A DNA stretch of 64,000 nucleotides, from sequence record MT446422.1. The stretch is one strand, 5' to 3'. Made by a program: the position numbers and the translations under genes. The stretch is from Escherichia virus TH57. The notes under the pieces were generated by a model. It ran no database searches. It saw only the letters and a program-made list of their open reading frames with translations, and was not told where the DNA came from. How positions within the stretch are numbered: position 1 is the stretch's first letter; each line of letters starts with the position of its first letter. Below, piece by piece: positions 48,486 to 50,148 of the stretch.

Positions 48486-48560
48486 GGCCCTTTAGCTCAA
48501 TGGGAGAGCTGTCAGCTCATAACTGATAGGTAGCTGGATCGAAACCAGCAAGGGCCACCA
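48486..48560 (+). tRNA. tRNA with anticodon CAT (Met, or Ile if lysidine-modified)
   Basis: hand-folded cloverleaf: acceptor GGCCCTT/AAGGGCC, D stem GCTC/GAGC, anticodon stem GTCAG/CTGAT with loop CTCATAA, T stem GCTGG/CCAGC, encoded CCA. Confidence 0.8.
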
Positions 48561-48564
48561 AACG

Positions 48565-48641
48565 CGGGGTGTAGCTCAATTGTATAGAGCAACGGTCTTC
48601 TAAACCGTAGGTTGTGGGTTAGAATCCCACCACCCCGACCA
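48565..48641 (+). tRNA. tRNA-Arg (anticodon TCT)
   Basis: hand-folded cloverleaf: acceptor CGGGGTG/CACCCCG, anticodon stem ACGGT/ACCGT with loop CTTCTAA, T arm GTGGG-TTAGAAT-CCCAC, encoded CCA; T4 also carries tRNA-Arg(UCU) here. Confidence 0.8.
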
Positions 48642-48656
48642 ATTACCGAGGATATT

Positions 48657-48896
48657 ATGGTTATTAGTGAATCATATGCAGTTATGGATATAACCAACAA
48701 CGAGCTGGTTTATAGCTTTGATGAGTTTGATGAAAATGATAAACAAGTCCCATGGTTTGCATTAACTGCTCCACCTGAGCATAATAAATATCTAAGTTTC
48801 CCGACTCGCAGATTAGCAACAAATTTTATGGAATTCAATGACCTTGATTCCAATTATAAGGTTGTTAAAGTCAAATTAGCTATTACAATTGAATGA
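48657..48896 (+). CDS. hypothetical protein
   Basis: 79 aa from ATG at 48657 with GAGGA RBS immediately after tRNA-Arg. Confidence 0.45.
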   Translation: MVISESYAVMDITNNELVYSFDEFDENDKQVPWFALTAPPEHNKYLSFPTRRLATNFMEFNDLDSNYKVVKVKLAITIE

Positions 48897-49083
48897 GAAA
48901 CCGGGTCGCTACCGGTAAGTCGTCGGACTGATGTTCCCTGTTTAAGGACTGACATTAATAAATCTTTACGATTTGTTGATGTCCCCTTATATCACAGCTG
49001 AAACGGCGCACCGAATTATCGATTCGAGGAAATATCTTTGCCGTAAGCCGAGTAGCGTTTTTGACGGAACGTTCGGATATGGT

Positions 49084-49227
49084 CGAGATATGGCCTTTTA
49101 AAAATATTGAGTAGCGTCAACTGCTTAATAACCGGGTTCGAATCCCGGCGTTTCGTACAAACACTTGCCTTGCAGGTGGAACCCCGACAAGGTATAGCCC
49201 CTCCCGAAAGGTTGGGGCTTTTTTATA
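49084..49227 (+). ncRNA. candidate small stable RNA with tRNA-like T-arm and 3' terminator
   Basis: CCGGG-TTCGAAT-CCCGG T-arm-like element (49132..49148) that does not complete a cloverleaf, then GC hairpin + TTTTTTAT (49197..49227); T4 has species 1 and 2 stable RNAs in its tRNA region. Confidence 0.25.
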
Positions 49228-49262
49228 CCCCGAATAAATTTGAAATTTTCTTCAAAAAGTAG

Positions 49263-49291
49263 TGTACATCCGAATTGACCGGGTGCATAAT
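49263..49291 (+). promoter_or_regulatory. early promoter cassette
   Basis: gtgtac, 17-nt spacer, cataat, conserved leader gattccatactgagttac. Confidence 0.45.
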
Positions 49292-49342
49292 GATTCCATA
49301 CTGAGTTACACACTGAATCAAACAAAACTTTGGAGAAATAAA

Positions 49343-49768
49343 ATGAACTTTCTGACCCTGACCTCTGCATTCTCTGTTACCCGCATCACTAACAAAATGG
49401 TTGCTGACGAAGTATGTGAAATCTGCATTCGTGAAGATGCACTTATCCATCTGACTTCAACCCAGATTGTTGCCATCGCCAAGTCCCTTAATTCTGAACT
49501 GAAGGTAAACACCAAACAGTCAAAAGAGTCCATCATTGAATTAATCCAAGCTGAAATGATTGAATTCCCAATTGAAGAAGTTAAAGAAGAAAAAATCCAG
49601 TCCAAATCTGGTAATGCTCGTGACATTTGCTTCCAGGCATTTGCAGAAATTGATATGGCAGATGGTGCAGCTCGTCGCGCTCTGATTGATGTTCTGGTTA
49701 ACACCCATGATATCAAAAAGACTGTTGTTCAGTCCTATGCTTCTAACTTCCGCAAAGCTCAAAAATAA
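49343..49768 (+). CDS. hypothetical protein with conserved C-terminal domain (GAARRA.ID...SVQSYASNFRK)
   Basis: 141 aa from ATG at 49343 (RBS GGAGA); C-terminal 45 aa paralogous to 50222..50665. Confidence 0.55.
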   Translation: MNFLTLTSAFSVTRITNKMVADEVCEICIREDALIHLTSTQIVAIAKSLNSELKVNTKQSKESIIELIQAEMIEFPIEEVKEEKIQSKSGNARDICFQAFAEIDMADGAARRALIDVLVNTHDIKKTVVQSYASNFRKAQK

Positions 49769-49780
49769 TTGAGAAAAGTG

Positions 49781-49809
49781 TTTTACTTCCAGGTGGGATA
49801 GTGTATAAT
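49781..49809 (+). promoter_or_regulatory. early promoter cassette
   Basis: ttttac, 17-nt spacer, tataat inside GGGATA/TATCCC inverted repeat. Confidence 0.5.
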
Positions 49810-49851
49810 TATCCCATACTGAGTTAACAAATAAAACACTGGAGAATAAAA

Positions 49852-50148
49852 ATGTTTAACGCACCTGCATGGCACGCTACCCAAGCTCAAGAAGAAAACA
49901 AAGCAATCATTTCTGCTAAAATTGAAGCTCAACTGAATGAATTGTGCGAAACTGCTTCTGAAGAAGTTGTTGCAATCATCAAACAGTATCCTGCATCCAA
50001 CTATTCCCTGGCATGCATCAAAACAGAAATGGTTAACTTGTGGCGCAAGAATAAGAAAACTTTCTTAGGTATGCAGTACCAGGCAATCGCGTCTGCGGTA
50101 GTAAACATGTATGACTTTGAAGTTTATTTCCCAACTTCTGAAAATTAA
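49852..50148 (+). CDS. hypothetical protein
   Basis: 98 aa, RBS GGAGA. Confidence 0.5.
   Translation: MFNAPAWHATQAQEENKAIISAKIEAQLNELCETASEEVVAIIKQYPASNYSLACIKTEMVNLWRKNKKTFLGMQYQAIASAVVNMYDFEVYFPTSEN

Follow-up and report, generated by a model that had tools for sequence, protein, structure and literature searches.

The 3' end of a tRNA operon very probably lies at 48893-49224 in a 64,000-nucleotide (nt) stretch of DNA from Escherichia virus TH57 (record MT446422.1). It carries orthologs of the bacteriophage T4 small RNA genes rnaD and rnaC, followed by a trailer hairpin and an intrinsic terminator. We assign this reading a probability of roughly 85%. The window is the whole 64-kb stretch that was analysed, and all positions are counted from its first letter. 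Neither rnaC nor rnaD codes for protein; both are structured RNAs maintained by purifying selection. rnaC mimics a tRNA: its 7-position acceptor-like stem is stacked on a canonical 5-base-pair (bp) T arm that has a UUCGAAU loop. What had looked like a gap between genes in the window thus holds two known RNA genes and a terminator, and its annotation should name all three, rnaD, rnaC and terminator. The rnaD/rnaC region is conserved and real, yet its detection here is a rediscovery of features already known in T4. The operon end is made up as follows.

48893-49012, plus strand: rnaD ortholog (T4 species 2 RNA), placed by local alignment to T4 rnaD
49013-49018, plus strand: 6-nt spacer GAATTA between rnaD and rnaC, placed by alignment to T4, where it reads AAATTA
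49019-49157, plus strand: rnaC ortholog (T4 species 1 RNA), a tRNA-like four-helix RNA of 139 nt
49162-49178, plus strand: trailer hairpin CUUGCCU-UGC-AGGUGG between rnaC and the terminator, found by folding and kept in T4
49197-49224, plus strand: intrinsic terminator of the tRNA/small-RNA operon, with a GC hairpin at 49197-49218 and a T-run at 49219-49224

The initial annotation had marked 48897-49262 as a noncoding block and had proposed, as one possibility, a counterpart of the small stable RNAs encoded in the T4 tRNA cluster. Alignment to the T4 genome (NC_000866) bore this out, with rnaD at 48893-49012 and rnaC at 49019-49157. The rnaD unit begins 4 nt to the left of the edge drawn at 48897 and overlaps the stop codon of the upstream open reading frame (ORF), while the right edge at 49262 is where the next T4-type early promoter begins. 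The T4 genes are annotated as misc_RNA T4s001 (rnaC, 'species 1 RNA', 70908-71046, 139 nt) and misc_RNA T4s002 (rnaD, 'species 2 RNA', 71053-71171, 119 nt). In pairwise alignment rnaC was identical to T4 rnaC at 137 of 139 positions (49019-49157), and nhmmer gave the match an E value of 4e-40. One of the two substitutions lies in helix P2 and the other in the P3 stem, where the window has G.U and T4 has A-U. The rnaD ortholog aligned over all 119 nt of T4 rnaD with about 87% identity and central indels. Homology to T4 ended past the terminator.

The two loci have much in common. In T4, too, rnaC follows rnaD and precedes the trailer hairpin and the terminator; its strand relative to the tRNAs and its fold are unchanged. 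T4 rnaD has an identical 5' hairpin, rod base and 3' block and likewise lies 6 nt upstream of rnaC, while its tip belongs to a different sequence class from that of the window. The loci also differ upstream, where an additional 79-amino-acid (aa) ORF parts tRNA-Arg from the rnaD-rnaC pair in the window. T4 rnaD starts 1 nt after tRNA-Arg, whereas rnaD of the window starts at the ORF stop codon. Direct adjacency of rnaD to tRNA-Arg is absent from T2 and RB18 as well and is therefore not family-wide.

A BLAST search of 50,697 phage records found the region in about 800 T4-like phage records; this conservation, together with the folding scores given below, puts it far from chance. Absence from relatives, which the initial annotation had named among the outcomes speaking against a small RNA, was not seen. 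The closest match to the stretch was Gaprivervirus vB_EcoM_RZ, with 99% identity. Homologs of rnaC were gathered by iterative BLAST, two IMG/VR pattern scans and one metagenome scan. This yielded 24 distinct full-length sequences of 138-142 nt (about 31 including later additions) from at least nine genera, namely Tequatro-, Gapriver-, Karam-, Moon-, Kagamiyama-, Winkler-, Gelderland-, Kanagawa- and Marfavirus. Covariance model R1 was built from 19 rnaC homologs of other genera and contained no T4-type sequence. It found rnaC of the window with 136.8 bits and an E value of 7e-32 over model positions 1-139, and this was the only significant match in the window. The covariance check proposed in the initial annotation thus upheld the rnaC structure. 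The constant length, the 98% of paired alignment cells, the 20 compensatory pairs and the cross-genus model score together show that rnaC is under purifying selection on its structure and is not decaying. Degenerate-pattern scans of IMG/VR and of Joint Genome Institute (JGI) metagenomes for a wider family returned only the known sequence classes and chance matches in coding DNA. The covariance-model comparison extended to T4-like phages of enterobacteria, short of the more distant T4-like phages of Vibrio, Aeromonas and Acinetobacter and the cyanophages.

RNAalifold, applied to the 24 rnaC homologs, gave a fold of 36 pairs, 20 of which had compensatory changes. In the alignment, 98.1% of cells were paired, compared with 84.6 ± 0.8% in column shuffles (0 of 500 shuffles reached the observed value), and sliding the partners lowered pairing to 37-49%. 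For the window sequence, both the minimum free energy (MFE) structure and the centroid were the same as the consensus fold, with -50.2 kcal/mol and z = -4.55 against shuffles. The elements of this fold are listed below.

49020-49026 (CGAUUCG) with 49149-49155 (CGUUUCG), plus strand: P1, acceptor-like helix of 7 positions, from RNAalifold
49149-49157, plus strand: P1 3' strand CGUUUCG (49149-49155) and tail UA
49027-49096, plus strand: P2, 70-nt arm at the position of the D arm
49061-49066, plus strand: P2 apical loop UUGACG, complementary to the P3 loop
49097-49104, plus strand: linker, an A-rich single strand of 8 nt
49105-49130, plus strand: P3, hairpin whose stem of 9-10 bp carries the invariant loop CGUCAA (49115-49120)
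49132-49148, plus strand: P4, T arm CCGGG-UUCGAAU-CCCGG, joined without a gap, as in a tRNA, to the 3' strand of P1

P1 consists of five Watson-Crick pairs and two invariant U.U mismatches. Its Watson-Crick pairs were 100% paired in 24 of 24 homologs and included one compensatory change from A-U to G-C, distributed 18 to 6. The base of P2 is AGG/CCU, and invariant GAGGA and GGCCUU flank the junction; compensatory changes occurred in 11 of the 14 pairs of the P2 inner helix and in none of the 3-bp base. In P3, 7 of 9 pairs had compensatory changes and the loop was 97% conserved. The middle pair of P4 covaries between G-C, U-A and A-U. Over the whole RNA, the most conserved parts (93-100%) were P1, the T arm, both loops and the junction with its GAGGA and GGCCUU, whose columns reached 97-100%; the stems, which covary, were the least conserved.

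The T-arm element CCGGG-TTCGAAT-CCCGG reported in the initial annotation was recovered exactly at 49132-49148. At 49135-49145, GGTTCGAATCC was the only exact match to the T-loop motif in the window; with one mismatch allowed, there were 4 matches in the window compared with 0.82 expected. P1 and P4 form a 12-bp acceptor/T 'top half' of a tRNA, and the D and anticodon arms are substituted. The T arm is part of a cloverleaf-like fold that needs all 139 nt, and this fold is not a tRNA. Like a canonical tRNA, rnaC has a T stem of 5 bp that continues into an acceptor-like stem of 7 positions, a UUCGAAU loop and four helices at one junction; it is packed among tRNA genes with short spacers, and in one clade CCA is encoded. 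Unlike a canonical tRNA, it is 139 nt long, has a 70-nt arm in place of the D arm and two invariant U.U mismatches in the acceptor stem, and its hairpin at the anticodon position consists of a stem of 9-10 bp closed by a 6-nt loop that is predicted to pair within the molecule. A standard tRNA was accordingly rejected: ARAGORN and Rfam model RF00005 were silent on the interval, and a D arm, a 5-bp anticodon stem and a 7-nt loop were not found. The earlier failure to complete a cloverleaf around the T arm was thus reproduced.

With tmRNA (SsrA), rnaC shares an acceptor/T-arm top half on a large non-tRNA body, and it is likewise a stable RNA and a plausible RNase P substrate. It differs from tmRNA by having no G3.U70 pair, tag frame or pseudoknot ring and by being about 2.5 times shorter. 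A tmRNA was also rejected as a candidate, given G-C at position 3, the lack of a tag ORF and the lack of a tmRNA match from either ARAGORN or Rfam. Other tRNA mimics are the YrlA/Y-RNA module, the 3' tRNA-like structures of plant viruses and the C4 RNA precursor of phages P1 and P7. The principle of showing tRNA-like geometry to tRNA enzymes is probably shared with rnaC, and the architecture appears to differ. There is no similarity in sequence or model, and no Rfam match of the rnaC region to mimics of the YrlA, plant-virus or C4 type was obtained at any threshold. Mimics of tRNA that serve as RNase P substrates have been listed (PMC11143913).

The P2 loop UUGACG and the P3 loop CGUCAA were complementary at 6 of 6 positions in all 24 homologs. 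The only variation in this pairing was itself compensatory, with A-U replaced by G-C in the Marfavirus clade (UUGGCG with CGCCAA). Metagenome copies of the Marfavirus clade carried the matching UUGGCG/CGCCAA pair, and the metagenome showed the same two loop versions. A weaker hint of tertiary structure came from the clade in which the T loop UUCGAAU is swapped for UGCAUCC or UGCAUGC (LC53, L038, L043, L059). In this clade the invariant junction GGCC was also changed to CGCC; the replacement of G by C at column 76 goes together with that of U by G at T-loop position 55. The change resembles the G18-psi55/G19-C56 elbow of tRNA and would fit a G18-psi55-like contact turning from G.U to C-G; it is a single event and may be a coincidence.

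The genomic setting of rnaC is that of a tRNA gene. Beyond the T4-type coliphages, rnaC lies without an adjacent rnaD inside the tRNA cluster in most genera. In Kagamiyama-, Moon-, Karam-, Gelderland- and Winklervirus it is placed between tRNA-Trp/tRNA-Phe and tRNA-Gly/tRNA-Trp. Spacers to the flanking tRNA genes are about 5-11 nt on each side, as for a tRNA gene. In Dhakavirus (IME08, L006 1501-1631; CLB_P2, L034 401-531) rnaC is precisely absent, and rnaD, trailer and terminator are kept; rnaD runs straight into the trailer hairpin sequence (ACACTTGCCT...), which in the window and in T4 follows rnaC. Behind P1 the genome reads U-ACAA in most phages; the Marfavirus clade has U-CCAA in its place, with an encoded CCA. 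The CAA directly 3' of the annotated rnaC end was invariant in every homolog, whether a trailer or a tRNA came next (49156-49160 in the window). Since this CAA does not vary, the functional 3' end of rnaC, or a processing signal, may lie beyond the T4 annotation.

For rnaD, 15 distinct homologs were obtained from Tequatro-, Gapriver- and Dhakavirus records and from unclassified IMG/VR contigs. In these, 97.7% of alignment cells were paired, compared with 92.5% in shuffles and 28-50% when partners were slid, and 5 pairs had compensatory changes. The RNA folded better than its shuffles (z = -3.16). The conserved core begins at about 48896 (AGAAACC), and two structural parts were recognised.

48900-48916, plus strand: rnaD 5' hairpin, with ACCGG, loop GUCGCUA and CCGGU
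48919-49011, plus strand: rnaD rod, whose base GUCGUCG (48919-48925) can pair with CGGCGCAC (49004-49011)

This architecture, a 5' hairpin and a long imperfect rod, was common to all 8 folded variants. The 5' hairpin occurred in every individual fold, and its closing pair changed from A-U to G-C in a compensatory manner in 3 homologs. The distal hairpin (about 48940-48990) is hypervariable and the flanking blocks are invariant. At least four unrelated classes of tip were seen among close relatives, represented by the window and RZ, T4 and RB18, Dhaka and VR25, and T2 and IME340. The two base blocks of roughly 20 nt are almost invariant, and the core blocks AAGUCGUCGNACUGANGUUCCCUG and AUCACAGCNNGAANCGGCGCA were present in Marfavirus too. 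There, an rnaD-like element lies about 430 nt upstream of rnaC (L009 107-181, L031 991-1065; also L015, L017 and L047), with a much shorter tip and a different 5' hairpin, inside the hypothetical coding sequence (CDS) CPT_Marfa_147. Because this element lies apart from rnaC, rnaD and rnaC are separable modules, both older than the split between T4 and Marfavirus. The two RNAs also differ in phylogenetic range.

A hint of a host-dependent role comes from the rnaD region. In the T4-like phage BW-1 a single convergent single-nucleotide polymorphism (SNP) in this region arose in all lines adapted to E. coli ECOR34 (PMC12685909, 2025), and the virulence index on ECOR34 rose from 0.17 to 0.98 (PMC12685909). 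By approximate mapping the SNP lies about 41 nt from the rnaD 3' end and falls in the variable tip. Short complementarities between the two RNAs were also noted, namely rnaD 3' GAAACG with rnaC CGUUUC and the rnaD loop CGCUAC with rnaC GUAGCG; they lie within stems and follow a single lineage split. A promoter of its own was considered for rnaD and rejected: the site at 48862-48889 is not kept in relatives with other upstream sequence and is probably due to chance.

We infer, with good support, that rnaC and rnaD are co-transcribed with the tRNAs and excised by tRNA enzymes, and that the rnaC body is compact and closed by loop-loop pairing. A mimic of tRNA that such enzymes cut out is the likeliest way for the RNA to act. 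Excision of rnaC by tRNA enzymes is suggested by its packing in the tRNA cluster, its spacers and tails and its clean absence from Dhakavirus. The enzymes would be those of host tRNA maturation; RNase P would make the rnaC 5' end at the acceptor/T minihelix, and trimming would remove the 3' trailer. Pairing of the P2 and P3 loops would hide the anticodon-like loop and close the body into a compact, nuclease-resistant particle. According to classical work on T4, the maturation of species 1 RNA depends on RNase P, and its T loop is modified in the manner of a tRNA. During T4 infection both RNAs were detected by RNA sequencing (RNA-seq) and northern blot and were classed as late RNAs (PMC9697503, 2022).

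Several points weigh against this picture or limit its reach. The mature ends of rnaC and rnaD given here were taken over from the T4 GenBank annotation. The loop-loop pairing is suggestive, being based on invariance and on one evolutionary event in one clade. With about 26 bp in P2 and about 10 bp in P3, an intramolecular kiss would require a sharp bend of P2, and the contact could instead be intermolecular. The non-canonical T loop of one clade implies that T-loop recognition is not universally required. In rnaD, the rod base is invariant, so that covariation cannot speak for its predicted pairing, and the MFE fold of the Marfavirus version differs. Deletions of the whole tRNA region of T4 are viable on laboratory hosts, so any role must be conditional. 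The roles of RNAC and RNAD in T4 were stated as unknown in 2010 (PMC3014915), and the function of rnaC and rnaD was still called unknown in 2022 (PMC9697503) and 2025 (PMC12685909).

The other suggestion of the initial annotation, a decayed tRNA gene whose T arm is the remnant of a drifting tRNA that has lost its other arms, was contradicted by the comparative data and is very improbable. It would account for the canonical T arm and the acceptor-like 3' strand, for a weak Rfam tRNA-Sec match at 49064-49156 and for the ARAGORN call of a tRNA-Met in the homologous 95 nt of an Enterobacter phage (PQ824230). Both the tRNA-Sec match and the 95-nt call stem from an alternative cloverleaf (49064-49071 with 49149-49156). 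This pairing was rejected, as only 83.9% of cells were paired, which is below the mean of its own shuffles (85.7%); it had no compensatory change and was broken in 15 of 24 and 10 of 24 sequences at two pairs. In a decaying gene, moreover, neither a length fixed at 138-142 nt nor 98% paired cells with 20 covarying pairs in at least nine genera would be expected, nor would loops and a junction conserved at 97-100%, and T4 accumulates a 139-nt RNA (PMC9697503). In the Rfam scan proposed earlier, run with Rfam 15 at the gathering threshold, only the two tRNAs, tRNA-Met and tRNA-Arg, passed in the 64-kb window and none passed inside 48897-49262; ARAGORN, too, called only these two in the window. 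A permissive scan of 48640-49360 (E up to 10) gave nothing significant. The best tRNA-type match in that interval was the tRNA-Sec match, with 16.6 bits (gathering score 47) and E 2.3. Neither rnaC nor rnaD has an Rfam family, as judged by the lack of any match above threshold.

The coding of small proteins, one or several, by this region, which many GenBank records annotate, can hardly be credited. ORFs do cover the region: TTG-initiated ones of 33-51 aa, among them 48973-49101 (42 aa) and 49107-49262 (51 aa), and one antisense ORF of 81 aa; CDSs are also annotated over homologs, for example vBKpnF48_274, CPT_Marfa_145 and VR7ORF148c. Nevertheless, no reading frame was conserved, the best being open in at most 11 of 24 rnaC and 5 of 15 rnaD homologs, and relatives contain conserved stop codons. 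The substitutions are pairwise compensatory and not codon-periodic, and at this place the curated annotation of T4 lists misc_RNAs but no CDS. The earlier statement that no convincing ORF spans the block therefore stands, all overlapping ORFs being short and without a conserved frame among homologs. In public records, homologs of rnaC and rnaD are frequently mis-annotated as a 95-nt tRNA-Met or as 'hypothetical protein' CDSs (L004 1554-1648 in PQ824230, L009 616-753, L031 1527-1664, VR7ORF148c, RB51ncORF141c), and only a few T4-type records label rnaC or rnaD.

As to what the released RNAs do, it is possible, though on the unlikely side, that rnaC acts as a non-decodable tRNA mimic (decoy, titrator or adaptor) on a tRNA-recognising factor and that the rnaD tip tunes host-specific fitness. 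rnaC would then present its tRNA top half to a host or phage factor in a conflict over tRNAs, candidate targets being a tRNA-targeting defence nuclease or a tRNA-maturation enzyme. A more specific proposal seems doubtful: rnaC would be a 'closed', kiss-locked tRNA mimic serving as a counter-defence decoy or adaptor, and rnaD a partner with a tip under host-driven diversifying selection. If it were true, two T4 RNAs that have been orphans for 50 years would turn out to determine counter-defence or host range.

Another reading is regulation by base pairing in trans, in which the A-rich linker of rnaC, the core blocks of rnaD and its loop GUCGCUA are candidates for pairing with phage or host mRNAs. 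rnaC and rnaD have been termed small regulatory RNAs (PMC9697503), the rnaD blocks hardly vary between T4 and Marfavirus, which is more than their structure would demand, and the convergent rnaD SNP alters host-specific virulence (PMC12685909). We nevertheless regard this as unlikely, since the two rnaC loops of highest conservation would be engaged with one another and a review of 2010 stated that no trans-acting RNA had been characterised in T4 (PMC3014915). There was also no extended match in E. coli genomes or plasmids, although BLAST is blind to seeds of 7-15 nt. The two RNAs might, finally, be scaffolds for processing and stability only, that is, spacers that aid folding and processing of the tRNA precursor and 3' protection and have no function once released. 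Their position at the 3' end of the operon before the terminator in T4-type phages would suit such a role, as would their presumed production by the same processing pathway as the tRNAs. This is quite unlikely, as rnaC is internal, between tRNAs, in most genera, and Dhakavirus has lost rnaC precisely while keeping rnaD and the terminator. The near-invariant loops and junction argue for specific recognition, and both RNAs accumulate as stable species in T4 (PMC9697503).

BLAST searches of 5,426 E. coli genomes and of PLSDB gave no match that would point to an origin from the host or a plasmid. Few orphan RNAs in molecular biology are older than rnaC and rnaD, whose function is a long-standing question; the T4 genes were sequenced in the 1970s. 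The comparative data add a covariation-supported rnaC structure, a candidate loop-loop contact, separable modules and a hypervariable rnaD tip, which make the question of function more testable. The only reported adaptive mutation, that of BW-1, falls by approximate mapping in this hypervariable tip.

The genes and sites next to the rnaD/rnaC pair are given below.

48486-48560, plus strand: tRNA-Met, called by ARAGORN and the Rfam tRNA model (scores of the tRNA pair, 61.4 and 73.7 bits)
48565-48641, plus strand: tRNA-Arg, called by ARAGORN and the Rfam tRNA model; with tRNA-Met it makes up the upstream genes of the rnaD/rnaC operon
48657-48896, plus strand: 79-aa ORF between tRNA-Arg and rnaD, from the ORF list, function not assigned
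49263-49291, plus strand: promoter-like site TGTACA-17-CATAAT for the gene at 49343-49768, from a promoter scan

The 79-aa ORF (48657-48896) matched phrog_33509, a family of unknown function, with an E value of 4.5e-57, and had no Pfam match. Its TGA stop codon (48894-48896) overlaps the annotated 5' end of rnaD, and the rnaD 5' end must therefore be cut from an mRNA in such phages. The corresponding site of T4 is without a gene, and in T2 and RB18 it is occupied by another ORF, of 116 aa; the tRNA-Arg/rnaD junction looks like a hotspot of gene insertion.

The GC-rich hairpin with a T-run described in the initial annotation proved to be the terminator, with GCCCC..GGGGC at 49197-49218 and TTTTTT at 49219-49224. 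It was called by the terminator scan, folded with z = -3.1 and was conserved in T4. The BLAST match to vB_EcoM_RZ was split, and an insertion within rnaC/rnaD was considered as the cause and rejected; the split is due to about 600 bp that follow the terminator. In the closest relatives, RZ, CJ20, P479, TH22 and TH15, this extra segment separates the terminator from the early promoter that follows, and it is absent here. It holds a 184-aa ORF of the DUF7338/phrog_2143 type (vB_EcoM_RZ, L002 3389-3943, corresponding to about 49230-49260 of the window).

Downstream of the block, the -35 region of the promoter-like site at 49263-49291 aligned with GTTTACA in T4. T4-type early-promoter-like sites were seen at 49263-49345 and 49779-49855, before two consecutive genes. 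The leaders of both genes share CCATACTGAGTTA and a GGAG Shine-Dalgarno sequence, and GGAG is the motif cleaved by T4 RegB.

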